This document shows, one piece after another, positions 3,374-63,163 of a stretch of 64,000 nucleotides of DNA. The DNA comes from Staphylococcus phage Machias, in the sequence record MW349128.1; one strand, written 5' to 3'. Position numbers and translations under genes: made by a program. The first letter of the stretch is position 1. Each line of letters begins with the position of its first letter. The notes under the pieces are model-generated. The model ran no database searches, was not told where the DNA came from, and saw nothing but the letters and a program-made list of their open reading frames with translations.

Positions 3374-3444
3374 GTAATTTTAATGGATAATCTTTATGAT
3401 TATCCATTCTTATTATACTTTATAAATATGGAGGATTTTATAGA

Positions 3445-4668: not shown

Positions 4669-4682
4669 TATAAAAGAAAGAA

Positions 4683-5744: not shown

Positions 5745-5751
5745 GAAATAA

Positions 5752-5800
5752 ATATATATTATAAATAGGTAATGAGCAAATATTATAACGCTCATTACCT
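5752..5800 (+). promoter_or_regulatory. early-type promoter box TATATTATAA plus 11-bp-stem 5' hairpin
   Basis: ATATATATTATAAATAGG followed by AGGTAATGAGC...GCTCATTACCT. The SD and ATG are about 20 nt downstream. Confidence 0.45.
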
Positions 5801-5816
5801 ATATTAAATTATTAAA

Positions 5817-6344
5817 ATGGAGAGTGAAATGGATATGTCAAACAAACAAGAAATTTTTACATTTGAAGAAATATTTAAAGAATTAACGGATTTTCAAACA
5901 AGTAGTAAATTGGAAGAATTTCCTAATAAGAATATTTTAAAAGGTATATTAGAGAATATCAGTAATAAGAGAGATTTAGAAAATAATAAAATGTATATAA
6001 GTATCAATATTAATAATTCACTAAAAGAATTAAAGAACATTGAAGATAATATAATTGATATCTTCAAAGATAATGAAGTTAATGAAACTGATAAAGAGAA
6101 TATCAGTACTTTATTAAAAACATCAAGTGATATTAAAACAAATATTAATAAAGATGATTATAAATCAGTATTAATATTAGAAACATCTTTAGATGAAATT
6201 ATTAATAAAATTAATAAAGATGAATTTAATAATAAAGATCTTAAAGAACTTTATGTATCAACTTATAATAATTTATCAGTAACATTAATGTCATATAAAT
6301 TACTTAAATTAATAGACGGATTTGACAAAATTAAAAACGGATAA
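5817..6344 (+). CDS. hypothetical protein
   Basis: 175-aa ORF preceded by a TATATTATAA box, a hairpin and a GGAG. Confidence 0.6.
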   Translation: MESEMDMSNKQEIFTFEEIFKELTDFQTSSKLEEFPNKNILKGILENISNKRDLENNKMYISININNSLKELKNIEDNIIDIFKDNEVNETDKENISTLLKTSSDIKTNINKDDYKSVLILETSLDEIINKINKDEFNNKDLKELYVSTYNNLSVTLMSYKLLKLIDGFDKIKNG

Positions 6345-6358
6345 GGGTGAAATGAATT

Positions 6359-6976
6359 ATGAAAAATAAATTTCTAATATTTCAAGATAAAGACAATAAT
6401 AATTATTTATTATTGTCTAATTTTGAATTTAATAAAAAGGTTAAACCAGATTACACGCATGATATAAAAGATATTAATGAAGTTGTTAAATTCAATAAAA
6501 AAGGAAAAAATCAATTTAAAATGAGATTTGATTTCCATACAGGTCATATCGTTAGATTTAATGAATTTTACAATTATCTAGATAATATTGATAAAGACTT
6601 TAAAAATTCAAATGCTAAAATTATTGATAATATTATGAATTCTGATTTAAAATCAGTTGATAAAGTTAATATTATTTATACAGGAAATAAAACAGAAGAT
6701 AATGAAATAATTAAGACTAACTTATACTTTATTATACCTGTTGATATTGATACCATTGAATTAAACGAACATATTTCTAAAATAGATACTACTCTTATGA
6801 ATAAACGTTTAAATGATGTTTTTAAATCAGAGACGGTGAATCAGAAAATTCTTAATCTTAAACCAAGCGTAACAGAGATTAATATACTATCTAAACAGAG
6901 TAAAATTATAGATGAATATTTTAAAGATATTGATCAAGAATATAATTTTATTAATGAATTTAGTAAATCAGAATAG
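6359..6976 (+). CDS. hypothetical protein
   Basis: 205-aa ORF tightly packed after the previous gene. Confidence 0.6.
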   Translation: MKNKFLIFQDKDNNNYLLLSNFEFNKKVKPDYTHDIKDINEVVKFNKKGKNQFKMRFDFHTGHIVRFNEFYNYLDNIDKDFKNSNAKIIDNIMNSDLKSVDKVNIIYTGNKTEDNEIIKTNLYFIIPVDIDTIELNEHISKIDTTLMNKRLNDVFKSETVNQKILNLKPSVTEINILSKQSKIIDEYFKDIDQEYNFINEFSKSE

Positions 6977-6995
6977 AAAGAATGTGTTTTAAATT

Positions 6996-7721
6996 ATGAT
7001 GGATTTAATAAATAAATTAAATTTTATATCATTGATATTAAATATACCTTTCTTATTAATATCAATATATATTACATTTTATTTTTATACCTATAAGAAT
7101 ATAAAAGATAAAAAGAATAGTATATATGATATTGCTCCAGTTTCTTTTACAGTTTATTTAAGTTTATTATTAATAATATTTTTACAAATTATAATTGATG
7201 ATATATCTTCATATGGAAATTTAATATGGAATTGGAGCATTTTAATCGTAATATTAAGTGCAATAATTATTAATATATTATTAGATTTAGCATTTGTTGG
7301 TTTTATTAAAATGAAAAGTATTTTAAGAATATTTATTGTTGCTAATATATTTTTATTTGGTTTATTAATATCCGATTCTTCTATATTAAATTCAGTATTT
7401 ATGTTTTTTATAATGATATTACTTATAATAACGGTATTACATTATTCTTCAGATTATGGAATATATAAAGATAAAAGTATGAGAGTTACTTTTGCCTCAT
7501 TCTTTTCTTTATTTCCATTAATATTTTCAATACTAATTTTAAATATGAATACAATAAATTTTGAATTATCGCATTACAATATTAATAATAATGTCAATGA
7601 AAAATATATAATTATATCAATTCAAATATTATTATTACTATGGAATATGGTTGTAATTATATTTAAAGGTTTCAATATTAATATTTACACAGTAATAAAA
7701 GAATTAATAAAATTGAGGTAA
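6996..7721 (+). CDS. polytopic membrane protein
   Basis: 241 aa with at least six hydrophobic segments, followed by a perfect 13-bp-stem terminator. Confidence 0.6.
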   Translation: MMDLINKLNFISLILNIPFLLISIYITFYFYTYKNIKDKKNSIYDIAPVSFTVYLSLLLIIFLQIIIDDISSYGNLIWNWSILIVILSAIIINILLDLAFVGFIKMKSILRIFIVANIFLFGLLISDSSILNSVFMFFIMILLIITVLHYSSDYGIYKDKSMRVTFASFFSLFPLIFSILILNMNTINFELSHYNINNNVNEKYIIISIQILLLLWNMVVIIFKGFNINIYTVIKELIKLR

Positions 7722-7763
7722 TGATCATTAATTTGATCATTACCTCTAATATTTTTTTTTTTT
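7715..7763 (+). terminator. rho-independent terminator
   Basis: GAGGTAATGATCA TTAATT TGATCATTACCTC perfect 13-bp stem followed by T13. Confidence 0.7.
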
Positions 7764-7785
7764 CGTAATTATCATTTATTTAAAT

Positions 7786-7830
7786 ATATATTATAATAAT
7801 GAAGATATATAATATATAATGATATATCTT
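7786..7830 (+). promoter_or_regulatory. TATATTATAAT box plus hairpin module
   Basis: TATATTATAATAATGAAG then AAGATATAT...ATATATCTT. Confidence 0.45.
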
Positions 7831-7855
7831 AAATAAATAAAAAGGAGATGAATTA

Positions 7856-8098
7856 ATGTTTATATTAGATATAATAATTGCTTTATTATATTATACGTTA
7901 ATACCAGTAGCGATAGCTTTTGGATCTTTTGAAATTTCTAAATATTTATCTACTTATTTAGAGAATTATATATTTAAAAGAAAATTAAGCTTAAGGACAA
8001 AACTTATATTAGCAATATCACTTGTAATGTTAACATCAATAGTAAAATCAATAGTTGAAATGCGAGTACATGTTGTATCTAGTTTTCTAGGTCTATAA
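7856..8098 (+). CDS. small membrane protein
   Basis: 80 aa with two predicted TM segments. It is preceded by a promoter-hairpin module and a GGAG. Confidence 0.55.
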   Translation: MFILDIIIALLYYTLIPVAIAFGSFEISKYLSTYLENYIFKRKLSLRTKLILAISLVMLTSIVKSIVEMRVHVVSSFLGL

Positions 8099-8120
8099 TT
8101 TTCTATGATCCAACAAAAAA
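8089..8120 (+). promoter_or_regulatory. conserved box AGGTCTATAATTTTCTATGATCCAACA (copy 1)
   Basis: One of four copies, each about 30 nt upstream of an SD and ATG, each containing TTTTCTATGATCCA. Confidence 0.4.
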
Positions 8121-8144
8121 TAAGAATTAACGGAGGAATTTATT

Positions 8145-8774
8145 ATGATAAAAGTAAATAAAAAAGTTAAAAAGGGTTTATTCAATAATGGCATTAAAAT
8201 TAAAACAGAAAATACTTATACAAAAGTAATTAATGAATATACAGATATTCTAAATGATACGATTAATGATGAAGATCTTAAAAATAATGTAGTTTTTAAA
8301 GATAGTCTTAAATTTATCATTTATTATGTAGGAAAGCTTAGAGAAGATGCTTTATTACAAAATCAAGATAATGAAACTAAATTAGATATTTTTGAATTAT
8401 CTAAGGATTTAAAATATTTTAAATCTATTCTTGATAGTAAATTATTTGACTCTAAATTGATACTTCAATCAACAGGTTTTAAATTAACAAATGGAAACTC
8501 ATATTCAATGATAATAAAAAGTATTAAAAATTTATTAGATGAATTGATAAAAACAATCAATGATAAAGATAATAAAATAATTTACGAAAATGCTTATCAT
8601 TATCTTAATGAATTAAATATCTTCTTAGAAAATAAAACAAATATTGAAAAGGAGATACGAGTAAATAAATATGACATATTAGAATTTATACCAAATAATG
8701 AAAATATAGATAAAGATGAATTTTATATTATGGTTAACCATTTATATGATTTAGGTGTTTTAGAAAAAGCGTAA
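8145..8774 (+). CDS. hypothetical protein
   Basis: 209-aa ORF with a GGAGG RBS. Confidence 0.6.
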   Translation: MIKVNKKVKKGLFNNGIKIKTENTYTKVINEYTDILNDTINDEDLKNNVVFKDSLKFIIYYVGKLREDALLQNQDNETKLDIFELSKDLKYFKSILDSKLFDSKLILQSTGFKLTNGNSYSMIIKSIKNLLDELIKTINDKDNKIIYENAYHYLNELNIFLENKTNIEKEIRVNKYDILEFIPNNENIDKDEFYIMVNHLYDLGVLEKA

Positions 8775-8792
8775 TGTATACTAAAATAAGTA

Positions 8793-8836
8793 TATATTAT
8801 AATAATGAAGAAAGATAAAATATTAATATCTTTCTA
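8793..8836 (+). promoter_or_regulatory. TATATTATAAT box plus hairpin module
   Basis: TATATTATAATAATGAAGAAAGAT...ATCTTTCT. Confidence 0.45.
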
Positions 8837-8860
8837 ATAAAAATTAAAGGAGAAATTATT

Positions 8861-9028
8861 ATGAAAAACTTAGTATTAAAAACATTAGTGGGATTTGGAG
8901 TAGGAATCGTATTAGGAGTAATTAACAATAAGATTGACGAATTAATTATGCAAAAGGAAATGGAAAAACAAGTTCTTAAAAGAGCTTCAGAAATAACGTT
9001 TGAACATCCGTTTTCTAATTTAGGATAG
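8861..9028 (+). CDS. small single-TM protein (not in the ORF track; paralog of 10201-10368)
   Basis: MKNLVLKTLVGFGVGIVLGV...QKEMEKQVLKRASEITFEHPFSNLG is 55 aa and about 70% identical to the 10201-10368 product, with the same upstream promoter-hairpin-SD module. Confidence 0.55.
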   Translation: MKNLVLKTLVGFGVGIVLGVINNKIDELIMQKEMEKQVLKRASEITFEHPFSNLG

Positions 9029-9054
9029 AGGAGGAAAGAGGATAACTGTTTTAA

Positions 9055-9115
9055 AGACTTAATGAATATAATGTATCAAGTTCATTAGGTCTATAATTTT
9101 CTATGATCCAACAAT
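9055..9115 (+). terminator. 12-bp hairpin (AGACTTAATGAA/TTCATTAGGTCT) fused to the conserved TATAATTTTCTATGATCCAACA box (copy 2)
   Basis: Stem-loop followed by a U-rich ATAATTTTC. The box continues to an SD. Confidence 0.45.
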
Positions 9116-9134
9116 AAAAAGGAGCTAAAAATCA

Positions 9135-9443
9135 ATGAATAACAAAAATAAATTAGTAGAGTTAAGAAAAGAATTAAAAACTGTATATTCAAATATAGGA
9201 ATAAACAGATCATTCACTATAAGAGAAAGACTTCATAAAGAAAAAGAAAGATTAATTAAAGAAATTAATGAACTAGAAAAAGATGAAAAAACTTTCGATA
9301 GAGAAAAACATATAGCGAGAGTTAAAGATCAGAATAATGATAATATTTACAAAGGATCAGATGAATTTTCTAAAGCAGGTAGACTTCATAGAAAATATCA
9401 GAAACAAGAGAAACACGCAATTTTCAATAATTCAGAACAATAA
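9135..9443 (+). CDS. hypothetical protein (paralog of 10754-11077)
   Basis: Shares the AKAGRLH C-terminal motif with the 10754 ORF. Confidence 0.55.
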   Translation: MNNKNKLVELRKELKTVYSNIGINRSFTIRERLHKEKERLIKEINELEKDEKTFDREKHIARVKDQNNDNIYKGSDEFSKAGRLHRKYQKQEKHAIFNNSEQ

Positions 9444-9456
9444 AGGAGAAATAATT

Positions 9457-10104
9457 ATGTTAAAAATAAATAAAAGTAATTTAAAAGAGTCAAATTTAGA
9501 ATTTTCAGGAATTAAAGATTCATATCAAAAAGCTATAGATTATATTGATTTAGCATTTTTAGGAGATCAAAAGCATATAGTTAAAGGAAATGAATTTGTT
9601 AAGTTATTTTTAGAAAAAGAAAAAGAATTAAATACTGAAAAATATAATGGAAAATTAAGTAGATTAGATGTAATTTCAGTTAATGATTCTTTGAAATTCT
9701 TAATGAGAATCATGAATAATGAAATTCTAAATCCTAGAAATATTGTAGAAGAGAATACAATATCTTTATTAAACAAAGAAGATTGGAAATTAACTCATAA
9801 ACATATTATAAGATTATGTAATCAAATTATCCAACTTAATAATGAAGAACCTGAACAACAAAATGGTCTATATTATTTTTACATTATACAAAAAACTTTA
9901 AAAAATAACGAAATAGAAAATGTTAATAACATTGAAGATCTTAGAGAATTAATTATCGAGCTAGTCTATATGGATATTGATATTGAATATTTTGAAGATA
10001 AAAATTATGTAACATGGGATAATGTATTAATAGAAGAATATTTTGGAAGAGATATTGATATTATTGTAGATCAATTAATTAATAGTAAATCAGTTGAATT
10101 TTAA
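9457..10104 (+). CDS. hypothetical protein
   Basis: The track ORF 9337-10104 overlaps the previous gene. The in-frame ATG at 9457 has an AAGGAG RBS, so the start was trimmed to it. Confidence 0.55.
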   Translation: MLKINKSNLKESNLEFSGIKDSYQKAIDYIDLAFLGDQKHIVKGNEFVKLFLEKEKELNTEKYNGKLSRLDVISVNDSLKFLMRIMNNEILNPRNIVEENTISLLNKEDWKLTHKHIIRLCNQIIQLNNEEPEQQNGLYYFYIIQKTLKNNEIENVNNIEDLRELIIELVYMDIDIEYFEDKNYVTWDNVLIEEYFGRDIDIIVDQLINSKSVEF

Positions 10105-10132
10105 AAAGCGTAACGTATAATAAAATAAGCAT

Positions 10133-10178
10133 ATATTATAATTATGAAGAAAGAGTTAATGATAATCTCTTTCTTCAT
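10133..10178 (+). promoter_or_regulatory. TATATTATAAT box plus hairpin module
   Basis: TATATTATAATTATGAAGAAAGAG...CTCTTTCTTCAT (12-bp stem). Confidence 0.45.
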
Positions 10179-10200
10179 AAAATTAATGGAGGAATATATT

Positions 10201-10368
10201 ATGACAAAATTATTATTGAAATTATTAGCAGGATTTGGATTAGGAATTGTGATGGGAGTTGTTTTAGACAAGATTGAAGAAATGTCTATGCAAAAAGAAA
10301 TGGAAAAACAAGTTTTTAAAAGAGCTTCAGAAATAACTTTTGAACATCCGTTCGCTAAATTAAAATAA
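10201..10368 (+). CDS. small single-TM protein (paralog of 8861-9028)
   Basis: The internal Met of track ORF 10144-10368 sits after GGAGGAAT. The product MTKLLLKLLAGFGLGIVMGVV...ITFEHPFAKLK matches the paralog. Confidence 0.55.
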   Translation: MTKLLLKLLAGFGLGIVMGVVLDKIEEMSMQKEMEKQVFKRASEITFEHPFAKLK

Positions 10369-10510
10369 AAAAGGAGGAAACATTATGAAAATCACTATCA
10401 TTAATAAACAGAATGAAAAATCTTCTTATAGAATTAGTCTTAAAACTATTCTATTTGAAAGAAAATTAATTAAGAAATTATAAGGAGTTGAAAAAGATAC
10501 TGTTTTAAAG

Positions 10511-10570
10511 AGACCTAATGGACATGGATCAAGTTCATTAGGTCTATAATTTTCTATGATCCAACAAAAA
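10511..10570 (+). terminator. 10-bp perfect hairpin (AGACCTAATG/CATTAGGTCT) plus conserved box (copy 3)
   Basis: Same architecture as copy 2. Confidence 0.45.
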
Positions 10571-10595
10571 ACTAAAAAGAAAAGGATGATTTATT

Positions 10596-10766
10596 ATGTT
10601 AGACTTATTAAATGAAATTGAATTTATGGAAATTAACGAAGAGGAATTGCTAAACAATTATTCAGATGGAGCAAGATACCCATCTGAACAAACGTATAAA
10701 GAAATAGAATCTATACTAGATAGCTTTGATAATTCAGCTTTCGGATTAAGAAAATGGGGAGTTTAA
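10596..10766 (+). CDS. small hypothetical protein (56 aa, not in the ORF track)
   Basis: An ATG after AAAGGATGA and downstream of the conserved terminator box. This is a weak call. Confidence 0.3.
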   Translation: MLDLLNEIEFMEINEEELLNNYSDGARYPSEQTYKEIESILDSFDNSAFGLRKWGV

Positions 10767-11077
10767 TTAAAATGGTCAGAGAAGAAAAAATCAAACAATT
10801 GAAACAAGAATTACAAGCAATATTAGAAAAAGAAATTAGATTCGGAGATAAACCAATTTCAAATAAACAATTTGAAAGGAAATTAGATTTAATGAAACAA
10901 ATAGAGAAATTAAAATTTGACATTAGATCAGAAAGATATTTAAGAAATGTCAAAAAGAATAAAATTAAGGAATATAAAGTTAACAGTGATTATGCGAAAG
11001 CTGGAAGATTACATCAATCTTTCCAAAGTAAAGAAGAGCATAATCTATGGAAAGACGATTTATTAGTAATTCAATAA
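10754..11077 (+). CDS. hypothetical protein (paralog of 9135-9443)
   Basis: AKAGRLH motif is present. An alternative start is possible at 10772. Confidence 0.55.
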   Translation: MGSLIKMVREEKIKQLKQELQAILEKEIRFGDKPISNKQFERKLDLMKQIEKLKFDIRSERYLRNVKKNKIKEYKVNSDYAKAGRLHQSFQSKEEHNLWKDDLLVIQ

Positions 11078-50923: not shown

Positions 50924-51252
50924 TTATTTAAAGTTTCTATAGAAATCATCAAGTCCATTAAGAACAGATTCTTCTAAGAAAACTTTAATAGTTTTATTAC
51001 TTTCTTTAATTGAAGCTAATTGAGATCCTTTATCGTAAATGATATTAGATTCATCAGCTTTATCAAATCCCATATCTTCAGCGATATATTTGATATTGTC
51101 TGAATTTTCTTTAATATAAGTTAAAACTTCTCTAGGAGAAAATTCTGTAACTTTACCGTTAGAAAACATATCAATTGATTCATTAACCATTTGTAAATCA
51201 CTAGTATTGTAATTATTATGATTCTCTGAAATTATATTTTGGATATAAGAAT
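50924..51252 (-). CDS. prohead protease (T4 gp21-like), exon 3
   Basis: The reading frame is open upstream of the annotated Met to about 51250 (IPSHQDSYIQNI...). It continues the protease past RLIC. Junctions are approximate. Confidence 0.45.
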
Positions 51253-51425
51253 CTTGATGTGATGGAATTACACGTTATCTTAACTATATGATTTTCATAT
51301 AGACGAGACTATATCTTCCTAATTTATATTAGGTAATATATTTAGTCGTTGAACGGAATTTAATCCGATGCTGATTATCTTAATAAAGATTTCCAGCAAT
51401 TAATATTATTTATACTAAGCAATAA
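51253..51425 (-). mobile_element. group I intron, copy 5 (minus orientation)
   Basis: Reverse-complement core elements: S AGACGAGACTATATC (51301), R TATTTAGTCGTTGAAC (51338), Q GATGCTGATT (51366), P CCAGCAATTAA (51393). Confidence 0.6.
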
Positions 51426-51624
51426 TTTTTTACCCAGTCATACGTACATCTTAGCTATATGGTTTCCATATAGACGAGACTATATCATACTCTTAGTAAG
51501 AGCGAATATATTTAGTCGTTGAACAACTTGTATTAAGTTGATGCTAATTGGCTTAATTAAACTTCTTAGCAATTAATATTCTTTTTCATTATATATCACT
51601 ATATAAAGCTGCTATAATTTAACA
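51426..51624 (-). mobile_element. group I intron, copy 4 (minus orientation)
   Basis: S (51471), R (51507), Q GATGCTAATT (51540), P CTTAGCAATTAATATT (51565). Its 5' leader TATAGTGATATATAATG matches copy 1. Confidence 0.6.
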
Positions 51625-51884
51625 GATTAATCTTAAAGGTTTAGTAACTTCTACTTCACCATTAGGTTTTCTTTCTATTTTACTAAAACCACGCATTGAG
51701 AAAGATACATCAGATTTTTGTCCAATTAAACCTTTCATATCCTTACCAGCTGATGTTTGAGCTGTTTCTACTTCTCCCATTAATTTATTACCATTCCACC
51801 AAGTTCTAGTGATAATATGAGAAATATTACGTTGATCAATATACATTTGACGTTTAGGTTCATCACTTAAAGGATGACCTGCAA
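51625..51884 (-). CDS. prohead protease (T4 gp21-like), exon 2
   Basis: AGHPLSDEPKRQMYIDQRNISHIITRTWWNGNKLMGEVE...DVSFSMRGFS resembles T4 gp21 ELNHP...HRITKLWWDGNTLMGEV...VSSRGMGS (catalytic His and Ser contexts). The gp21 comparison is from memory. Confidence 0.5.
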
Positions 51885-52033
51885 ATTATTATTCTTTATT
51901 ATTTTAATAAAGATTAGACTATATCATCTAGGTTATATATTTAGTCGTTGAACAACTTGTATTAAGTTGATGCTGATTACTTTAAATAAGATTTCAGCAA
52001 TTAATATAATTTAACGTGAGCCATTTTAACCTA
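51885..52033 (-). mobile_element. group I intron, copy 3 (minus orientation)
   Basis: S AGACTATATC (51915), R ATATTTAGTCGTTGAAC (51936), Q GATGCTGATT (51969), P TCAGCAATTAATA (51994). Confidence 0.6.
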
Positions 52034-52258
52034 AAACTCACCATAAAAAGTTCTTCTTGCTAATTTTTCTTGTACTACTGGACTATCTAAACCACTTTGG
52101 ATAACATCTTTACGATAAACACGACCATTACGGTTTTGTCTATCAGCTTCTTGTAACTCAGCAATGAATCTAACTGATTTATTATTATCTTGAACTACTT
52201 CTGGTTGAGAAGTTGTATTAGATTCATTAATAATGTAAGCTTTAATATCTTTAGACAT
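52034..52258 (-). CDS. prohead protease (T4 gp21-like), exon 1
   Basis: MSKDIKAY...NGRVYRKDVIQSGL...RRTFYGEF. The reading frame continues as AGHPL after the intron. Confidence 0.5.
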
Positions 52259-55908: not shown

Positions 55909-57078
55909 ATGGTATCTTTAAAAGAAGAAATACAATTAAATAAAATAAATAAAATAATGAACATCAATGAAGATGCATTTAACTTTGGTAAAAATACTTC
56001 ATTACTAAAAGAAATAGATGAAGAATTTGATTCATTAATTAGTAAATATAATTTTGAAAAATCTGATTTTGATGTAATTGATAAGAATGAATACAATGAT
56101 ATTGCAAAAAGAATATCAGATATTGCTAAGAAATTATTTAACACTAATATGAAATTAAAATTTATTGAAGCCGATAAGCGTGGAAAAGATAAATTTAGAG
56201 TAGGTTCAGTAGCACATACATTAATTAAACCTGAAGATATTAGAAATATTACAGATGGAATCACTAAAATTGTTATTGAAGAAAAAAATGGTATTTACTA
56301 TTCTAAACCTAGAGAAATTGAAGTAAATATTGAATTATCTTCATTGAGATATTTTATAGAAAAGAAAGAATCAGGTCAAAAAGAATTTACTACTCTTAAT
56401 GGTAGAATGTATACCTTTTTATTATTACATGAAATAGGTCATAATTTATTTTTCCCTGTAGAAATTAATGTACTCTCTGGTGGTAAAACTCCTACATTCG
56501 AACTCAAATATAAAGATAATAAACCAGTTCAGTTTAAGTACACTAAAGAAATAGAAGCTGACACTAGAAGAAATAGAGTATTAGCAGCTCCTATGATTCT
56601 TGCAATGTCAACATTAGTAATGTGTTTAACTGCTGTATTTATAGGTGCTAGCATATCAATGGGTTCATTTATGGGAACAGGAATGTTACTAACAAGTGCA
56701 AGTTTCAATAGAAAAACTACTATGGATTATAATCTTTCAGAAAGATCTGCCAACCAATTACCTGCTCTTTATGGATATTCTGTAGAAATGGTTAAATTTT
56801 ATGATTTAGTGTATAAAGCATTTAGAATGAAATCTGAAAAAAGACCTAATAACTTAATAGCTAAAGCTATGAGAGGACTTTTATATCCTATGAGTGGTTT
56901 TATTAAAAGTTATAAAGATTATCCAACAGATTCAATTGATGCAGTTATTAAGACATTAAAATTTGAAATTAGTAACAATAATAATTCTAATGAAGTTAAA
57001 AAAGAACTCAAAAGACAATTAGATGAAATTCAAAGAATAATAAAATATTCTAATAGACTTAATACTAAGACAAGATAG
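55909..57078 (+). CDS. HExxH-motif protein with C-terminal TM region
   Basis: LLLHEIGHNLFFP zincin-like motif. TM helices LAAPMILAMSTLVMCLTAVFIGASISMGSFMGTGMLL. It sits between the capsid and terminase genes. Confidence 0.45.
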   Translation: MVSLKEEIQLNKINKIMNINEDAFNFGKNTSLLKEIDEEFDSLISKYNFEKSDFDVIDKNEYNDIAKRISDIAKKLFNTNMKLKFIEADKRGKDKFRVGSVAHTLIKPEDIRNITDGITKIVIEEKNGIYYSKPREIEVNIELSSLRYFIEKKESGQKEFTTLNGRMYTFLLLHEIGHNLFFPVEINVLSGGKTPTFELKYKDNKPVQFKYTKEIEADTRRNRVLAAPMILAMSTLVMCLTAVFIGASISMGSFMGTGMLLTSASFNRKTTMDYNLSERSANQLPALYGYSVEMVKFYDLVYKAFRMKSEKRPNNLIAKAMRGLLYPMSGFIKSYKDYPTDSIDAVIKTLKFEISNNNNSNEVKKELKRQLDEIQRIIKYSNRLNTKTR

Positions 57079-57092
57079 TAAGAAAGAAGTGA

Positions 57093-57737
57093 ATGAAGAC
57101 TATGGCTATAACAAAATTAAAGAAAAAAATTTATTACGATTATAAAACTAATAACGTAAGCTTTTTAAGAGTTGCTAAAGAACTTAAAGATAATAATATA
57201 CAAAATTATGGTCTACCATTAACTCTATATGATAAGAAATTAATTGGCGTTGATCCTTGGGATGAAGATTTAGATAATGAAATGAAAACTCGTGTTATTA
57301 GGGAAGCTAAACTTAATATATGGTTTTATTTAAGAGAAGTTATCAGAGTTCCAGTTCCAGGTGGTAAGGTAATGTATGAACTTCATAGAGGTAACTTAGC
57401 TATGACGTTTTGTATGCTGCATAATTTAGATACTGCAATAATGTTACCACGTCAGCACTATAAAACATATTCTGCAGTATGTTATTATTCATGGATTATG
57501 TTATTGGTAGGTAATAACTATACAATGTTATTTACACATAAATCATACTCGGACACTACTGAAAACCTTAAAAGATTAAAAAATCTATTCAAAGAGAAGT
57601 GTTTACCTGAATATGTATTAGCTAACTTTGGAGATAAAAATGATAGAGATAAAATTAATGAATTTTCTTTAGCAAGTAATAACAACACAATAAAAACAGT
57701 ATCACCTCCAACAAATGCTGAGAGTAAAATACGTGCT
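57093..57737 (+). CDS. terL: large terminase (T4 gp17-like), exon 1 (ATPase N-terminal part)
   Basis: Walker A-like LPRQHYKTYS against T4 SRQLGKT. IKTVSPPTNAESKIRA against T4 IGAYASSPDAVRGNSFA. The annotated stop at 57755 lies inside the intron leader. The exon end is approximate. Confidence 0.6.
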
Positions 57738-57884
57738 CTCATTAAACTCTATTAACTGCTGAAAAAGATACTAAACCAATCAGCATCAATCAAATTGATT
57801 GTTCAACGACTAAATATAGAGATAATTAATATTATAAGATATAGTCTAGTGTGTATGAATATCATACAATGTATTACGGCAAAC
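57738..57884 (+). mobile_element. group I intron, copy 6 (terL)
   Basis: P TTAACTGCTGAAAAAG (57752), Q AATCAGCATC (57778), R GTTCAACGACTAAATA (57801), S AAGATATAGTCTAG (57837). Confidence 0.6.
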
Positions 57885-59118
57885 AAAGCAGGAAGAGGTA
57901 GCACCGTATGTAGATGCAGTGCATAAAGATTTTTAATTGCTGGAAGACTAATAATGAAGTTAATCAGCATCACTTTAATTAGTGTTCAACGACTAAATAA
58001 AATCAATTTTAATAATTTTTACTGTTAACATTCCTTTATCAGTACGATAACGGAGGGATAAAATGCCTAAAGGTGTTAAAAGTAAAGAAAAATTCATAGA
58101 ACAAAAAAATAAAACTTTTAAAGAAATAAAAGATATCAATGGAGATAAATTTGAAATACTGGGAGAGTATAAAAATTCTAAAGAACCAATTAAATGTCAT
58201 TGTAATATATGTGATAGAGATTTTTTCTTACCTACTGAAAAACTAAGATTAAAAAGAAAATTCTGTAATAGAAAAGATTGTAGATATTCAGAAAAACCCA
58301 AGAATTCTAAAGGTAAAGAAACTTTTTTAATAGAATTAAAAGATAAGTTCGGATTTAATTATACTTATATTGAAGGATTCAATGGAATGAATAAAAAGTG
58401 TAGATTCCGTTGTGGAAAATGTGGAAATATAAGATATTTTGCAAAGCCTTCTACTCTAATGGATAAAAGAAAGAAGTATAATTCAGTAAACTGTAACAGA
58501 TGTATAAATAATGAAAATTATATCATATTAGATAGTCAAGAATTATCTAAAAAGACAACAGAAGAGTTTCAAGGTGAATTAGATATGATATTTGGATATA
58601 ATAAATTTAATGTGTTAACTGAATATACTAGGAGCAAAGATTATATCTATTTGAAGAGTAATGACTGTGGACACAAATTTAAAACGAGACCAGATGATAT
58701 ACTTAAAAGAAAAAGATGTAGTGTATGTTCTAAAAGTATAGGAGAAATTGCCATCATTGAATTACTTCAAGAGAATAATGTAGAATATGAGAATGAAGTT
58801 ACTTTTGAAGGATCTAGTTTTAGATTTGATTTTTATTTTAAAAAAATAAATACTGTAGTTGAAGTAGATGGAAAAGGTCATATAAAAGGTTATGGAAATT
58901 TCATTAATGATAAAAGAAACAAAAGCAAAAGAACACCTGAAGATATAAAAAAATTAGATAATGAAAAAGATGAATTTATAAGAAGCAAAGGAATAAATAT
59001 GATACGTCTCCCTTACCAGAATAGAATAAATGAAGAATTAATTATCCCTATGAAAAAATTATTAAAATTATGATATAGTCTGATCTGCATGGATTATCAT
59101 GTAGTTTAACGTAAATGA
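57885..59118 (+). mobile_element. group I intron, copy 7 (terL), carrying a homing endonuclease ORF in P8
   Basis: P TTAATTGCTGG (57934), Q AATCAGCATC (57962), R GTTCAACGACTAAATA (57985). The HEG ORF spans 58063-59073. S TGATATAGTCTGA (59071) overlaps the HEG stop codon. P9 hairpin CTGCATG/CATGTAG follows. Confidence 0.6.
58063..59073 (+). CDS. intron-encoded homing endonuclease, EDxHD/Vsr-like (PD-(D/E)xK) with tandem CxxC zinc ribbons
   Basis: 336 aa with GGAGGG RBS. Three C-x2-C...C-x2-C pairs. C-terminal VVEVDGKGHIKGY...MIRLPY fits the E-x-D-G-x-x-H Vsr/DUF559-like catalytic core (compare I-Bth0305I). Confidence 0.5.
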   Translation: MPKGVKSKEKFIEQKNKTFKEIKDINGDKFEILGEYKNSKEPIKCHCNICDRDFFLPTEKLRLKRKFCNRKDCRYSEKPKNSKGKETFLIELKDKFGFNYTYIEGFNGMNKKCRFRCGKCGNIRYFAKPSTLMDKRKKYNSVNCNRCINNENYIILDSQELSKKTTEEFQGELDMIFGYNKFNVLTEYTRSKDYIYLKSNDCGHKFKTRPDDILKRKRCSVCSKSIGEIAIIELLQENNVEYENEVTFEGSSFRFDFYFKKINTVVEVDGKGHIKGYGNFINDKRNKSKRTPEDIKKLDNEKDEFIRSKGINMIRLPYQNRINEELIIPMKKLLKL

Positions 59119-59202
59119 CCTATGGTTTGGCTTGATGAGTGGGCGTTTATACCGCATAATCAAGTAATGTTTGAAGCGATGAGTAAAAAGGCTCCATCTT
59201 TA
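59119..59202 (+). CDS. terL: terL micro-exon (Walker B)
   Basis: (P)MVWLDEWAFIPHNQVMFEAMSKKAPSL aligns to T4 gp17 [23 protein letters not shown]. An in-frame TGA lies immediately upstream and a TAG at the end. Boundaries are approximate. Confidence 0.55.
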
Positions 59203-59355
59203 TAGAAATATAGATGATGAATAATATTAACTGCTGAAAAGTTTAAAAACCAATCAGCATCATTAAATAATGTTCAACGACTAAATTTATTAAATCTTAA
59301 AAAGATTATGATATAGTCTGATCTGCATGGATTATCATGCAGCTAACATAAATGA
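59203..59355 (+). mobile_element. group I intron, copy 8 (terL)
   Basis: P TTAACTGCTGAAAAG (59227), Q AATCAGCATC (59252), R GTTCAACGACTAAAT (59272), S TGATATAGTCTGA (59309), P9 CTGCATGGATTATCATGCAG. Confidence 0.6.
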
Positions 59356-59442
59356 CCAGCAATAAGTACAGCTTCAAGAATTGCAAAAGAAAATGGTTCT
59401 CCTTATGGACTTCTTATCACAACTACACCTAAAATGACTGGG
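59356..59442 (+). CDS. terL: terL micro-exon (ATPase motif III region)
   Basis: TAISTASRIAKENGSPYGLLITTTPKMTG against T4 ISSGRRSKIIITTTPNGLN. It is bounded by in-frame stops. Confidence 0.55.
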
Positions 59443-60975
59443 TGAAGATAAATTAAAATTTATCTTAAGGACTTTATTAATTGCTGAAAGGTCCTTAGAG
59501 CTTAATGAGCTACAACGTGACTGGCAACAGTGAGCGTGATATGCTTAAAAATCATTAAGATTGGAAAATCAGCAGCTAATTTTCAATTTAATAAATTATT
59601 AAATCAATAATGAACAACTCTTTATACAAAAGATGTAGGAGTTGGTAATTTTGGATTTTTATGAAAAATTAAATAAAAAATTTGATAACAGTATAATAAC
59701 AAAAGAAAAATATATAAACGGCAATGAAAAGATTAAATTCTATTGTAAAAATTGTAAAAATTATTTTTATTCTAAACCTAGAAAAATTATTGAATCATCT
59801 TATAAATCATGTCATTTATGTAGGAAAAGGGAAAAAGAAAATATATTTAGGAATAATCTCATTAATATGATAAATAAAGAAATATATGAAATTATTGAAA
59901 TGAAAGATCCTATAAAAAATAATGAAAAATTTTCTTTAAAACATAAAGAATGTGGAAATATCTTTTCTATATCAGTGAGTAATTTTAAAAAAGGAAGAAA
60001 ATGCCCATATTGCTCAAATAAGCCTATGAAAAGGGATCAAAATTTCTTTTTAGAAAAAATAAATAATATTGATTCAAGTTTCTTAAAAGAATATGAATTA
60101 AAAAGCAATTATATAAGCGTTAACGAAAATATTAAAATTAAACATAAAGAATGTGGAAATATCTTTAATACTACCCCTAATAGAATTTATAGAGGTAATA
60201 GATGTAGTATGTGTTCACATAAATCTGATAAATATAATTTTAAAGAGGTAAAGAGTATAATAGAAAAAGATGGAAAATTTAAACTTTTATCTAATAATTA
60301 TATAAATAATAAATATAAATTAAAAATAAAATGTCTTAACTGTGGTAATATACAAGAGAAAAGTTTAGTTACATTTCAAGATAAAAGAAATAGAAAATGT
60401 ATATGTGAAAAATATTCTTTACCAATTCGTTATATAACAAATTTTTTAATAGATAAAAATATAAATTTTGAGCTAGAAAAAAGATTTGATAATTGTAGAA
60501 ATATTAGACCTTTACCCTTCGATATTTTTATAAATGATTTTAATATTCTAATTGAATATGATGGGGAACAACATTTTAAACCAATATATGGTATAGAAAA
60601 ACTCAATAAAACTAAAATAAATGATGAAATAAAAAATAATTTTTGTAATAAAGAAGGAATAGAATTAATTAGAATAAACTGTTATGATAATTATGAAGAT
60701 AAAATTGAAAATTTAGTTCAACGACTATCGAAAGTTGAGTATACATCGTGAGGATATATACAATATAAATGAGTAGAGTACAGCCAAGCGGTTAGTTTTT
60801 AAGTGATATTAGCTTAATATAATTCTATTAAATGGAAACATAAAGACGTGTATATTAACACATATACGTAAGATATAGTCTCAACGTTTAGGGAAAACCT
60901 AAAGAAGTTCATAAGAGAACTGGTATAGATTAGCGATCTATATTGAAGATTTTGAGTACTCTCGACACATCTCAA
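59443..60975 (+). mobile_element. group I intron, copy 9 (terL), carrying a second homing endonuclease ORF
   Basis: P TTAATTGCTGAAAGG (59477), Q AAATCAGCAGC (59567), HEG 59642-60751, S AAGATATAGTCTC (60870). The R element was not confidently located. The 3' end is set where the T4-aligned exon (GQFFFQQMNEAAQ against LNHFYDIWTAA) starts. Confidence 0.5.
59642..60751 (+). CDS. intron-encoded homing endonuclease, EDxHD/Vsr-like, paralog of 58063-59073
   Basis: 369 aa with TTG start after AGGAG. Repeated KHKECGNIF...C.YC zinc-ribbon units. C-terminal ILIEYDGEQHFKP...LIRIN has the E-x-D-G-x-x-H core. Confidence 0.5.
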   Translation: MVILDFYEKLNKKFDNSIITKEKYINGNEKIKFYCKNCKNYFYSKPRKIIESSYKSCHLCRKREKENIFRNNLINMINKEIYEIIEMKDPIKNNEKFSLKHKECGNIFSISVSNFKKGRKCPYCSNKPMKRDQNFFLEKINNIDSSFLKEYELKSNYISVNENIKIKHKECGNIFNTTPNRIYRGNRCSMCSHKSDKYNFKEVKSIIEKDGKFKLLSNNYINNKYKLKIKCLNCGNIQEKSLVTFQDKRNRKCICEKYSLPIRYITNFLIDKNINFELEKRFDNCRNIRPLPFDIFINDFNILIEYDGEQHFKPIYGIEKLNKTKINDEIKNNFCNKEGIELIRINCYDNYEDKIENLVQRLSKVEYTS

Positions 60976-62190
60976 GGGCAATTTTTCTTTCAACAAATGA
61001 ATGAAGCAGCTCAATGGAATGAAAAAATATATGATTATTTTATTGATAGTGAAGAAGAAGGAAATTCTAAATTAGAAAAATACATGGAAGATAATTCAAA
61101 TAATGAATTCATGTATATAGAATATTCATATAAAGAATTAGGTAAAGATGAAAATTGGTTAGAAAAACAAAAGAGACAAATTGGTTCTTTAGAAGCTGTT
61201 AAACGTGAGATATTATTGGAATGGGCTTATAGTTCTGATGATTCATTATTCTCTGAAGAACAAATGACTGAAATATCTATGTATGCTAATAAAGAAATAT
61301 ATAATACTCTTGAATTTAATATTGATGGTAGAACTTATTATGTAAATATGATTAAATATATGGATAATATTACAGAGAAAAATTGGCTTATTGGTATTGA
61401 TATGTCTGGTGGTTTAGGACGAGATAATACAGCGTTTACTGTAGTGGATCCAGCTACTTTGGAACCAGTAATGACTTTTAAAAATAATGTAATTAATGGA
61501 CCTACATTCAGAAAATTAATTAAAGAATTGGTTAGTTTCTATATACCTAACGCTATATTAATACCTGAACGTAACTATGCAGGTTTAACAGTAATTGATC
61601 ATATGATATCTTATGATGGTTTAGAATCTAATTTATTCTATACGCTTAAAACTCGTGTAGCTGAAAAGCAAGTAGAAAATAAAAGTTTATTTAATGAAAT
61701 GTCTAGATATAGCAAAACTGAAAAAGTTAAAAAAGAAACTCGTAGATATGGTATTGATACAACTAAAAAATCTCGTGATATAATGTTAAATGAAATATTA
61801 TCTATGCTTGTTGAAGAAAAACCACATTTAATTAATAATAAACCACTTTTCCAAGAAATCAAATCTTTACAAATGATTAAAGGACGTATTGACCATCCAC
61901 CGGGAGGTCACGATGACTTAATGATGTCTTATTTATTCTGTTTATATGCGTATTACTATGAAAAAGATATTAATAAATTTGTAAAAATTAAATATGGTTC
62001 TAAACTCTCACCTAACAGTGAAAATGCAGAAGGAATGAAAAAAGAACAAGAAGCTAGAAGAAAAGATATTGCTTCAATTAAACGTATCAATAGTGTTATT
62101 GAAGGAAATGATATGAGTAATTCTATATTTGGTCAACAACAAAAACCAATGGATAACAATAATAAACGTATTATGGATTTATTCAAATAA
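60976..62190 (+). CDS. terL: large terminase (T4 gp17-like), final exon (nuclease domain)
   Basis: DHPPGGHDDLMMSYLFCLY against T4 EEGYHDDLVMSLVIFGWL. Also LIGIDMSGGLGRDNTAFTVV (RNaseH-like Asp). The track ORF start at 60943 is upstream of the likely 3' splice site. Confidence 0.6.
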   Translation, partial: GQFFFQQMNEAAQWNEKIYDYFIDSEEEGNSKLEKYMEDNSNNEFMYIEYSYKELGKDENWLEKQKRQIGSLEAVKREILLEWAYSSDDSLFSEEQMTEISMYANKEIYNTLEFNIDGRTYYVNMIKYMDNITEKNWLIGIDMSGGLGRDNTAFTVVDPATLEPVMTFKNNVINGPTFRKLIKELVSFYIPNAILIPERNYAGLTVIDHMISYDGLESNLFYTLKTRVAEKQVENKSLFNEMSRYSKTEKVKKETRRYGIDTTKKSRDIMLNEILSMLVEEKPHLINNKPLFQEIKSLQMIKGRIDHPPGGHDDLMMSYLFCLYAYYYEKDINKFVKIKYGSKLSPNSENAEGMKKEQEARRKDIASIKRINSVIEGNDMSNSIFGQQQKPMDNNNKRIMDLFK

Positions 62191-62198
62191 AATATATA

Positions 62199-62238
62199 AG
62201 AGTAATGATGATTAACTTCGTCATTACTCTATTTTATT
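62199..62238 (+). terminator. terminator after terL
   Basis: AGAGTAATGA...TCATTACTCT stem followed by a T-run. Confidence 0.6.
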
Positions 62239-62362
62239 GGAAATTTTTATAAAATGTTATTAACTAAGTTGTATAGTAGAGTTGATTTTAGAAAAGATAA
62301 AAGAAAATTTTAGTTATTCGTCAGAATAATATATTATATAAAAATAAAAAGATAAATGGGAA

Positions 62363-63163
62363 GTGAAAATTTTGACTAAGACATACTTAATTGATGACAA
62401 AGATGATTTAGAAATGGTTAAAGAAGAATACGATGAAATTATTATGAATATTTCTGAAGATATTATGGTAGATAATATTAAAGATCAAATTCATGAATCT
62501 AATACAAAGCAATTTTATACTGATCAACATCATAAGAATTTCTTTGAATACTTTGAAATCCGATTTAATTTTGTATTAGAAAGATATAAAGATGATAATG
62601 ATATTTTAAATAGAACTAAAGAAGTTTATAATGATATTTTAAATGAAATATTAGAATCAATTCAAGATACTTATCAATTATCTATTGAATTTTCAGAAGA
62701 TATTTTAGTTGAAGATAAAGCTCAGTATATTAAATCATTATACTATTTCTTTGTATTAAATAAAAAAGAAATGATTAATAATCTATTTATTAATTATATT
62801 GAAAAGAATATTGTACATTTATCTAAGACTTATGAAGATAATTTAAATGATGATATTAATACTTCATTATCATATAACAATTTAAAGAAAACTATTGATA
62901 ATGAATACACAGCTATGATTTATTCTATTCCAGATATTATTGAAGGAATTTATATTGGAGATAATGAAGATATTATTGAAACTATAATTCTAGATGAAGA
63001 ATCTGAATTGAATAATTATCAGATTGATAAAATGTTAGTAGAACAATCAATTACTGATGTTAGATTTGATAATAATCTTATTAACGTATTAAGAGAAACA
63101 TTTGAAGATAATAACGTATTATTTAGAGAAATCCAGTATTATTTCATTAATAAATATAAATAA
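62363..63163 (+). CDS. acidic hypothetical protein
   Basis: 266-aa ORF after the terL terminator. Confidence 0.5.
   Translation: MKILTKTYLIDDKDDLEMVKEEYDEIIMNISEDIMVDNIKDQIHESNTKQFYTDQHHKNFFEYFEIRFNFVLERYKDDNDILNRTKEVYNDILNEILESIQDTYQLSIEFSEDILVEDKAQYIKSLYYFFVLNKKEMINNLFINYIEKNIVHLSKTYEDNLNDDINTSLSYNNLKKTIDNEYTAMIYSIPDIIEGIYIGDNEDIIETIILDEESELNNYQIDKMLVEQSITDVRFDNNLINVLRETFEDNNVLFREIQYYFINKYK

Follow-up and report, generated by a model that had tools for sequence, protein, structure and literature searches.

In the genome of the jumbo Staphylococcus phage Machias, homology to the large terminase subunit (TerL) is scattered over about 5 kb. The window analyzed here is a 64,000-nt stretch of this genome; the last exon described below matches fragment P0001, annotated as 'terminase large subunit [Staphylococcus phage Machias]', with 100% identity, and the closest relatives of the window are PB50, PALS_2, AH12, S6, DC4, and MarsHill. 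The terL genes of S6 and SA1 have no interruption and encode 677 aa each. Exon boundaries were set by blastn and tblastn, with the uninterrupted S6 terL (L004:2502-4535) as the query and the window as the target. The S6 gene aligned to five collinear segments, with breaks at S6 nucleotides 627/628, 656/657, 722/723, and 797/798. These pieces are spread over positions 57093-62190 on the plus strand, with four P/Q/R/S cores between them. When joined, the five exons (633, 29, 66, 76, and 1236 nt) form a 2040-nt open reading frame (ORF) with a single terminal stop, encoding a 679-aa TerL with 80% identity to its uninterrupted S6 and SA1 counterparts. We consider it about 90% probable, judging from sequence comparison, that Machias terL consists of five exons split by four group I introns and spliced to give this protein.

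Exon 1 (57093-57725, plus strand; 633 nt, 211 codons), delimited by tblastn and blastn against S6 terL, encodes the Walker A motif LPRQHYKT and ends in GCT GAG AGT, of which the final U pairs with an intron G in the P1 fold. Exon 2 (57879-57907, plus strand; 29 nt) matched S6 nucleotides 628-656 with 93% identity by blastn. It reads GCA AAC AAA GCA GGA AGA GGT AGC ACC GT, which is translated as ANKAGRGST(V) and contains R217-G218, invariant in the alignment of TerL homologues. Exon 3 (59118-59183, plus strand; 66 nt), placed by the S6 alignment, encodes (V)PMVWLDEWAFIPHNQVMFEAM(R) with the Walker B residues D227-E228; by the ribozyme-defined 5' splice site, its end would be U59184 rather than 59183. 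Exon 4 (59355-59430, plus strand; 76 nt), placed in the same way, encodes (R)PAISTASRIAKENGSPYGLLITTTP and carries the coupling motif TTT, in which T267 is invariant. Exon 5 (60955-62190, plus strand; 1236 nt including the stop) aligned by tblastn to S6 residues 267-675 with 74% identity and encodes what remains of the ATPase domain plus an RNase-H-like nuclease domain marked by D417 and GHDD (586-589). The joined protein has the N-terminal ASCE ATPase and C-terminal nuclease architecture of a T4-type TerL, with LPRQHYKT, WLDE (D227 and E228 invariant), TTTP, D417, and GHDD (D588 and D589 invariant). The exons contain no stops or frameshifts, and their protein identity to the intact genes is 74-95%, although DNA identity has fallen to 75-86%. 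The spliced TerL matched PHROG 2 'terminase large subunit' (2.4e-39) over residues 15-615.

An earlier note on this DNA had proposed a T4-type large terminase gene scattered over about 5 kb and cut by four group I introns. The collinear alignment to the intact S6 and SA1 genes confirmed the scattering and, with the core elements and covariation described below, the interruption by four introns. The note was also right that Walker A falls in exon 1, that Walker B and TTT fall in separate micro-exons, and that the nuclease domain is encoded by the last exon. Its count of about five exons agrees with ours, but it had missed the 29-nt exon 2. Its exon ends followed ORF ends and were 12 to 21 nt off relative to the S6 alignment, which replaces 59119-59202, 59356-59442, and 60976 with 59118-59183, 59355-59430, and 60955. 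The micro-exons, given as 80 to 90 nt, are 29, 66, and 76 nt by alignment, and their rarity was overstated, as 14-nt terL exons are found in relatives and exons of 6 and 11 nt in other genes of the window. The stop codons ending the exon ORFs are indeed inside the introns, but 13 to 30 nt in (57753-57755, 59203-59205, and 59443-59445) rather than in the first nucleotides. A search with the spliced ORF supported the reported micro-exon similarity to T4 gp17: the best gp17 match covers residues 211-271, exactly exons 2 to 4, and the alignment spans Walker B to TTT plus the HDD motif. The same ORF scored 17.8 bits (E=0.0027, residues 116-370) against Pfam Terminase_6N (PF03237), below the 22-bit cut-off, but this domain is carried by some homologues of the same TerL family.

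The four intervening sequences all have group I elements on the plus strand. Intron 1 (57726-57878; 153 nt, no ORF) has P at 57752-57767, Q at 57778-57791, R at 57801-57821, and S at 57836-57849; it ends in UUACG, with the omega G at 57878, and scored 110.8 bits against covariance model R1. Intron 2 (57908-59117; 1210 nt) has P at 57933-57948, Q at 57962-57974, R at 57984-58004, and S from 59070. Its endonuclease ORF sits in the loop of a perfect 13-bp P8 stem (58005-58017 with 59057-59069), the 3' end is AAAUG with the omega G at 59117, and model R1 matches its two halves (57926-58065, 72.7 bits; 59040-59117, 40.6 bits). Intron 3 (59184-59354) is compact and has no ORF, with P at 59227-59242, Q at 59252-59264, R at 59272-59291, and S from 59308, and scored 116.2 bits against R1. 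Its insertion relative to intron-less alleles is 171 nt, whereas the ribozyme boundaries given by the P1 pair U59184•G59191 and homology are 59185-59354; its 5' part is like intron 1 and its 3' part like intron 2. Intron 4 (59431-60954; 1524 nt) is larger, with P1 (CACCU/GGGUG), a P2 hairpin, P at 59477, Q at 59567, R at 60716-60728, P3 (59470 with 60731), and S at 60870-60882. Its P6 stem (59576-59584 with 60707-60716) encloses an ORF, and it ends in AUUUUG with the omega G at 60954.

In minimum free energy folds, P1 of each intron contains a wobble pair at the 5' junction (U57725•G, U57907•G, U59184•G, and U59430•G), and in introns 1, 2, and 4 this U is the last exon base demanded by the reading frame. 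At the 3' junctions, G57878, G59117, G59354, and G60954 directly precede the exons, and a terminal G was also found in five further introns of the window and eight introns in relatives. The R element GTTCAACGACTAAAT has eight exact copies in the window; with up to three mismatches, 10 were seen against 2.97 expected, and 0 shuffles reached 10. The P...Q pattern occurred four times in the window against 0 expected.

Rfam 15 gave no match to Intron_gpI (RF00028), either at the gathering threshold over the whole window or at E≤10 over 57000-62400; only chance snoRNA and sRNA matches appeared. The DC4 genome paper likewise found no Rfam group I match (PMC10638138). We read this result as a sensitivity limit of the model, because covariation supports the group I fold. 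In the seed alignment of 11 local mini introns, 92.3% of cells pair, compared with 27 to 44% in a control in which the pairing partners were slid, and P3 shows compensatory changes in five of six pairs. In an independent set of 37 distinct IMG/VR sequences outside model building, 93.7% of cells pair versus 33 to 44% when slid, percentages that are somewhat inflated because the alignment was fitted to the model; double changes occurred in 30 of 33 pairs, and the covariation score was 0.677 versus 0.158 for shuffled sequences. P, Q, R, and S are present in all four introns, P3, P4, P5, P6, P8, and P9 show compensatory changes, and P7 is invariant. The 11 local and 37 independent viral sequences give strong covariation support to the fold of introns 1 and 3, including the P3/P7 pseudoknot.

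The long ORFs that the earlier note had located at 58063-59073 and 59642-60751 both lie within intervening sequences and encode putative homing endonucleases. The intron-2 ORF (58063-59073, plus strand; 336 aa) has GGAGGG upstream of its ATG and encodes a protein in which zinc-ribbon repeats precede a Vsr-like PD-(D/E)XK nuclease at the C-terminus. It matched PHROG 559 (3.9e-36) and phrog_9084 'homing endonuclease' (2.2e-15), and its PB50 orthologue is annotated as a homing endonuclease; an exact-sequence look-up returned no record. The intron-4 ORF (59651-60751, plus strand; 366 aa) starts at TTG 59651, 9 nt after AGGAG, the longest ORF running from 59642, and its final ~45 nt are shared with R/P7 and with the 3' strands of P6 and P3. 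It encodes a C-terminal Vsr-like nuclease, 31% identical over that domain to its counterpart in the intron-2 ORF, together with treble-clef zinc ribbons in tandem. This ORF matched PHROG 559 (2.7e-59), with weak Pfam matches to DUF4379, CapR, and DUF2726, and has 529 homologues, some of which are named very-short-patch-repair endonuclease or homing endonuclease. Residues D291, E302, D304, H308, and K328 are invariant in 26 homologues. Its AF2 model (pLDDT 86.4) matched E. coli Vsr (1vsr; probability 0.99, target TM 0.49) in Foldseek, which also matched AbaSI and TnsA. In phmmer and profile searches of both endonucleases against PDB sequences, no nuclease was found, only haemagglutinin and zinc-ribbon noise; the Vsr relationship was recovered by fold search and not by sequence searches. 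The modeled Vsr/PD-(D/E)XK fold with its acidic and histidine catalytic residues predicts nuclease activity.

Intron presence and absence vary at identical terL sites among sister phages. PB50 has a 100% identical copy of intron 1, which is absent in S6, SA1, PALS_2, AH12, and MarsHill, and the intron 2 site holds an ORF-less 157-nt intron in MarsHill and LY01. Intron 3 has the same junctions in PB50 as in Machias; the intron at site 722 is absent from all three further metagenomic terL relatives (L131-L133). Intron 4 with its ORF is found at the same site in PALS_2 with 88% identity, compared with 76 to 84% for the flanking exons; in AH12 and LY01 this site is occupied by a mini intron of ~156 nt, and PB50, S6, SA1, and MarsHill have none. 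The number of terL exons is five in Machias, four in PB50, four in MarsHill (one of 14 nt), three in AH12, and at least six in LY01. Across the clade there are seven terL insertion sites, six of which fall within 171 nt of the highly conserved ATPase core, and related introns are as small as 127 nt, without P9. An IMG/VR search for TerL relatives found none. The polymorphism at identical sites and the higher conservation of intron 4 than of its exons are indirect support for homing.

Intron 3 is anomalous in that its U•G pair (U59184•G59191) misses the reading frame by one base. Canonical joining at U59184 and G59354 gives a +1 frameshift, so that translation would stop where exons 4 and 5 meet, after 269 aa; full-length TerL therefore needs non-canonical splicing or recoding. 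We enumerated in-frame U(-1)/omega-G pairs near the junctions, and none had a supported P1. The only in-frame pair, U59180 with G59354, was rejected because it would remove one residue and lacks P1 pairing, and other P1 registers, a reversed G•U pair among them, were unconvincing. P10 of this intron has 1 bp at most.

The explanation that we somewhat favor is that intron 3 is spliced in frame but non-canonically, by cleavage after G59183 (giving AGA, Arg, the intron-less sequence) or by ligation after A59355 (giving AGU, Ser). Relative to S6, exactly 171 nt have been inserted, and they separate the AG from the A of the AGA codon. P1 runs one pair past the splice site in 11 of 11 other mini introns, and it does so in intron 3 only if the site is after G59183. 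Residue 243 is variable across the TerL family, with Ser occurring, and a 1-bp P10 could form between C59356 and G59190. However, intron 3 shares its P7 G-binding sequence with the other introns and thus shows no sign of altered nucleotide specificity, and to our knowledge G at -1 or A at omega is almost unheard of in natural group I introns.

It is less credible, and in our view unlikely, that intron 3 is spliced only canonically, so that the mRNA is frameshifted after ...FEAMS and is either recoded by +1 or yields mostly the truncated 269-aa ATPase-only product. The P1 fold does put the sole wobble pair at U59184•G59191, and U is the last exon base both in intron 1 (gagagu/AAAAUACGUGCUCUC) and in a copy resembling intron 3 that lies in a different AH12 gene (cagagu/CAAAUAAAAGGCUCC). 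The 3' end UAAAUG/ACC is common to introns 2 and 3, and intron 2 must use that G; the lack of an in-frame pair with a supported P1 points in the same direction. But AGU ACC contains no slippery sequence and no known +1 stimulator, and the viable isolates PB50 and Machias need TerL. In addition, exon 4 has been kept in the S6 frame, as both Machias/PB50 differences are synonymous and one makes a stop in the shifted frame. We put forward only tentatively, as a possibility that may well prove wrong, the full proposal for Machias and PB50: that intron 3 cannot yield an in-frame terL mRNA canonically, that 5' cleavage occurs at the G-C pair adjoining the wobble or ligation one base past the terminal G, and that the canonical product would be an ATPase fragment cut short at 269 aa. 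In that case, the phage would possess a naturally occurring group I intron whose splice site is non-canonical, or it would control how much packaging motor is made by splice-site choice or recoding.

For the locus as a whole, it is highly improbable that the pieces stay unspliced, whether as fragments translated separately and then assembled like the split RNA polymerase subunits of jumbo phages or as a decaying pseudogene: genuinely split genes exist in jumbo phages, and the GenBank records of PB50, MarsHill, and Machias each have two separate 'terminase large subunit' CDSs, but exons 2 to 4 encode 10, 22, and 25 residues with invariant catalytic positions and no start codon or ribosome-binding site, the DNA between the exons shows the covarying group I fold, the exons remain open and conserved in protein, and the same gene is intact in sister phages.

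Intron-split terL genes of large phages were already known, and base-level mapping and the intron 3 frame mismatch are added here. In the MarsHill/Madawaska/Machias clade, terL was reported as intron-disrupted, together with genes for RNA polymerase subunits, prohead protease, DNA polymerase, and gyrase B, but the mature TerL 'could not be confidently reconstructed' and the introns were left unclassified (Korn et al., bioRxiv 10.1101/2020.12.14.422802). In contrast, the later-sequenced intact S6 and SA1 genes now allow base-level exon maps. In Bastillevirinae Bacillus phages, terL has up to three group I introns with PHROG 559 ORFs carrying a VSR-type nuclease domain; splicing, small internal exons, and exon skipping were demonstrated experimentally (PMC11878797). 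Those introns average 802 nt and are detected by standard group I models (PMC11878797), whereas Machias introns 1 and 3, of 153 and 171 nt, are missed by Rfam, and Machias has four introns in 205 coding nt. The gut 'Jug' jumbo phages have compact group I introns (mean ~206 nt, 18.5 per genome) and terL in two or three fragments, with metatranscriptomes supporting splicing (PMC12880540). They are Bacteroides phages, whereas Machias is an AR9-like Staphylococcus phage. The R...S core pattern of the Machias introns also occurs in 350-400-kb IMG/VR contigs. Phage Twort orf142 has three group I introns, and the T4 td, nrdB, and sunY introns belong to subgroup IA2; we take the Machias P/Q/R/S elements to be very similar to the Cech/Michel consensus of group I introns. 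The Twort and T4 introns are 250 to 1000 nt with P2 and P7.1/P7.2 extensions, unlike Machias introns 1 and 3, which have none of these. The Twort orf142 product is a tail tube protein, not TerL (PMC11878797). The Machias endonucleases resemble the Vsr-like or 'EDxHD' PD-(D/E)XK homing endonucleases in the C-terminal Vsr fold, the ExDGxxH motif, and the location within a phage group I intron. An example of this class is I-Bth0305I of Bacillus phage 0305phi8-36, to which the searches run gave no direct sequence or structure match; unlike that class, the N-terminal DNA-binding part of the Machias enzyme consists of tandem DUF4379-type zinc ribbons.

We propose that four group I introns invaded a 205-nt stretch encoding the best-conserved motifs of the ATPase (GRG, Walker B DE, and TTT). 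The gene would be transcribed as a single ~5.1-kb precursor, in which each intron would fold into a group I core (P1, P3-P9, and the P3/P7 pseudoknot). Guanosine attack at the P1 U•G pair, followed by exon ligation after the terminal G, would then excise the introns and join the five exons into the TerL reading frame. The endonuclease genes would be housed in the P8 loop of intron 2 and the P6 loop of intron 4, and their zinc-ribbon and Vsr-like nucleases may cut the intron-less terL of co-infecting relatives, leading to homing, which would explain the intron patchwork among sister phages.

TerL is a standard marker for phage phylogeny and packaging-mechanism prediction, and this is the first base-level TerL reconstruction for the MarsHill/Machias clade. 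Group I introns of 127-180 nt form a widespread family in jumbo phages that standard tools (Rfam) fail to detect, and essential genes are consequently annotated as fragments or 'hypothetical proteins'. The clustered terL sites, with exons down to 29 nt (14 nt in relatives), provide a compact natural system for adjacent-ribozyme competition, exon skipping, and homing.

Within positions 57093-62190, the ORF listing and the raw sequence showed TerL-like pieces and two long ORFs. The product of the exon 5 ORF matched, at 100% identity, the "terminase large subunit [Staphylococcus phage Machias]" encoded on a contig of 274,478 bp. The nearest records to the window in the phage collection (PB50, at 97.7%, AH12, PALS_2, S6, UFV_DC4, Madawaska, MarsHill, LY01, and SA1) were all Staphylococcus jumbo phages of ~260-274 kb. 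The terL gene is uninterrupted in S6 and SA1 (2034 nt), and S6 terL aligned with the window in five collinear segments by tblastn and blastn. The exact junction positions were read off the sequence, which placed exon 1 at 57093-57725 (633 nt), exon 2 at 57879-57907 (29 nt), exon 3 at 59118-59183 (66 nt), exon 4 at 59355-59430 (76 nt), and exon 5 at 60955-62190 (1236 nt), all on the plus strand. The earlier note had described a terL gene split by four group I introns. This description proved correct apart from two points: the 29-nt exon 2 was not located, and the exons were closed at ORF ends, which overshoot by 12-21 nt.

When joined, the five exons form a 2040-nt ORF with a single terminal stop, and the 679-aa product showed 80% identity to S6 and SA1 TerL. 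The spliced protein matched PHROG 2, "terminase large subunit" (2.4e-39, residues 15-615), and its match to Pfam Terminase_6N was weak (17.8 bits versus a cut-off of 22). The best match to T4 gp17 covered residues 211-271, which are exactly exons 2-4. Across 25 aligned members of the family, R217-G218, D227-E228 (Walker B), A245, and T267 (TTT motif) were invariant, and all of these residues are encoded by the three micro-exons. Because exon 3 is 66 nt long, skipping of this exon alone would preserve the frame. The predicted mRNA junctions at introns 1, 2, and 4 are AGU|GCA, GU|A, and CCU|AGU, and the junction-spanning peptides of the predicted spliced TerL include TVSPPTNAESANK, GSTVPMVWLDEWAFIPHNQVMFEAM[R/S]PAISTASR, and ENGSPYGLLITTTPSTLDTSQGQFFFQQMNEAAQWNEK.

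The sequences interrupting terL are group I introns. The core elements P (UUAAYUGCUGRAA), Q (AAUCAGCA), R (GUUCAACGACUA), and S (GAUAUAGUCU) were found in the correct order in all four, at counts far exceeding the shuffled expectation. By local folding, the final exon U at each 5' junction forms a U•G pair in a P1 hairpin, and G is the last base of every intron. Neither intron 1 (153 nt) nor intron 3 (171 nt) contains an ORF, and both lack P2 and P7.1/7.2 extensions, except that intron 3 has a small P2 hairpin. The ORF of intron 2 (1210 nt) is enclosed by a perfect 13-bp P8 stem. Intron 4 (1524 nt) belongs to a larger type: P2 is present, the P5 region is extended, and the ORF lies in the P6 loop, with its 3' end extending through R. 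Rfam 15 gave no match to any of the four terL introns, even at E<=10.

The fold was examined by covariation in a seed alignment of 11 ORF-less mini introns from the window, AH12, and MarsHill. In the hand-drawn group I structure, 92.3% of the cells pair, compared with 27-44% when the partners were slid. Double changes were observed in 18 pairs, including five of the six pairs of the P3 pseudoknot helix, and P7 was invariant. Independently, RNAalifold predicted P4, P6, P7, P8, and P9. Within the window, the covariance model built from these introns (R1) recovered seven mini introns, intron 2 in both its halves, and intron 4 in its 3' part. In the Rfam scan, which covered the window, the group I model detected none of the nine copies of the mini-intron family present there. 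In IMG/VR loci fetched by the R...S pattern, R1 found 80 copies (37 distinct). Among the distinct copies, 93.7% of the cells pair versus 33-44% when slid, percentages that are somewhat generous as the alignment was fitted to R1. The covariation score was 0.677 versus 0.158 for shuffles, and 30 of 33 pairs showed a compensatory change. Despite the model-fitted alignment, compensatory changes are unambiguous in every helix. The R...S core was seen in >120 viral contigs (IMG/VR loci L006-L125; e.g., L046 1249-4202, L014, L029, and L036), many of them 200-400 kb and some giant-virus MAGs, often in clusters of 3-6 copies per few kb. Judged by this shared core, the mini-intron family is widespread in large viruses.

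The sites of intron 3 showed a frame anomaly. Its P1 is GAGU/GCUC with U59184•G59191. Homology with intron 1, and with a copy resembling intron 3 in another AH12 gene, makes U59184 the final base of the exon, and the 3' end is UAAAUG|ACC by homology with intron 2. These sites yield ...AUG AGU ACC AGC..., a +1 frameshift that would stop translation where exons 4 and 5 meet, with a predicted 269-aa product ending in ...SYHNYT. The junctions are identical in PB50; the two exon 4 differences between PB50 and Machias are synonymous in the S6 reading frame, and one is a stop in the shifted frame. In-frame joining requires either G59183|...G59354|, which restores AGA (Arg), or U59184|...A59355|, which gives AGU (Ser); the mRNA would then read AUGAG-ACCAGC or AUGAGU-CCAGC, respectively. 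The family varies at residue 243, where Ser is among the residues found, so either joining may occur. P1 runs one pair past the splice site in all 11 other mini introns, and the P1 of intron 3 gains such a pair only with the site after G59183. All 13 other reconstructed introns (eight from the window, five from relatives) were canonical and in frame.

Mapping S6 terL onto the relatives revealed a patchwork of intron sites (numbers are S6 CDS nt). Introns were found at 627/628 and 722/723 in Machias and PB50, at 642/643 in AH12, MarsHill, and LY01, and at 725/726 in MarsHill and LY01. Site 656/657 is occupied by an ORF-containing intron in Machias and PB50 and by a 157-nt intron without an ORF in MarsHill and LY01; site 797/798 holds an ORF-containing intron in Machias and PALS_2 and a mini intron of ~156 nt in AH12 and LY01. 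These six sites span 171 nt. A metagenomic relative carries larger-type ORF-less introns at 642/643 and 797/798. With canonical U/G boundaries, TerL was rebuilt as 677 aa in MarsHill (exons of 642, 14, 70, and 1308 nt) and 676 aa in AH12. Between Machias and PALS_2, intron 4 is 88% identical and the flanking exons are 76-84% identical, a difference consistent with lateral movement.

The 642/643 intron is merely 127 nt in MarsHill (L128 4386-4512) and LY01 (L130 5225-5351), an unusually small size among group I introns. It has no P9 hairpin, with AAAAUAG directly after S, and is flanked by the 14-nt micro-exon (CGTGGTTCTACTGT). At site ~1620, LY01 has a further insertion whose ORF bears the annotation "mobile element protein"; this ~1.95-kb insertion (L130 ~6805-8755) is in the nuclease domain at S6 nt ~1617-1625.

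The ORFs of introns 2 and 4 both belong to PHROG 559 (3.9e-36 and 2.7e-59, respectively), and their C-terminal domains are 31% identical. The intron 4 ORF has 529 homologues, in which zinc ribbons of the DUF4379, DUF723, or CapR type occur together with DUF2726; the names given to some of them are homing endonuclease or very-short-patch-repair endonuclease. Residues D291, E302, D304, H308, and K328 were invariant among 26 homologues. The AlphaFold model of this ORF (pLDDT 86) matched E. coli Vsr (1vsr, probability 0.99), AbaSI, and TnsA. PHROG 559 with a VSR domain has been reported from Bastillevirinae terL introns (PMC11878797).

In total, nine introns of the compact family were observed in the 64-kb window. 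The non-virion RNA polymerase beta'-N gene (1701-3372, plus strand) contains two, at 2799-2980 and 2987-3166, separated by a 6-nt micro-exon, GCCGAT (2981-2986), that supplies the A-D of ADYDGD, the catalytic motif; the sequence in the intact gene of S6 is GGT ATG GGT GCT GAC TAT GAT GGA GAC. The P1 of the second intron must use nearly the whole micro-exon, and the pair is also present in AH12. The prohead protease/scaffold gene (50924-52258, minus strand) contains three, at 52035-51882, 51621-51443, and 51431-51273, and its 11-nt micro-exon is TATGACTGGGT (51442-51432, minus strand); its exons joined at canonical U/G sites form an ORF of 843 nt free of internal stops. In S6, with its uninterrupted terL, two CDSs separated by ~250 nt are annotated in the prohead protease region (L005, S6 4000-11000, at 3063-4291), and an intron is probably present there too. 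In another AH12 gene (L134, AH12 133220-136296, at 900-1670), four or more introns of the family stand in tandem within ~750 nt, with very short exons, and the 5' part of terL intron 3 has its closest relative among them. The P9 hairpins of Machias introns 2 (59084-59103) and 3 (59322-59341) are CUGCAUGGAUUAUCAUG(U/C)AG, and those of PB50 (L001 4586-4605 and 4822-4841) are the exact reverse complement (CUGCAUGAUAAUCCAUGCAG). This flip in concert suggests gene conversion between introns 2 and 3 of each genome.

The Machias/MarsHill paper listed the large terminase among intron-disrupted genes and gave the absence of an intact homologue as the reason why this protein could not be rebuilt (10.1101/2020.12.14.422802), and the DC4 paper found no introns by Rfam (PMC10638138). 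Bastillevirinae, like Machias, have several introns in terL, with small internal exons and exon skipping on record (PMC11878797). In the Jug jumbo phages, thousands of group I introns of ~206 nt, some in terL, have been reported with metatranscriptomic support (PMC12880540). Thus, with terL introns already on record in these phages, the Machias gene is a well-resolved case of a known kind. What is new is the exact layout of the terL exons, how densely the insertion sites are packed, the very small size of the introns, and the frame problem of intron 3.
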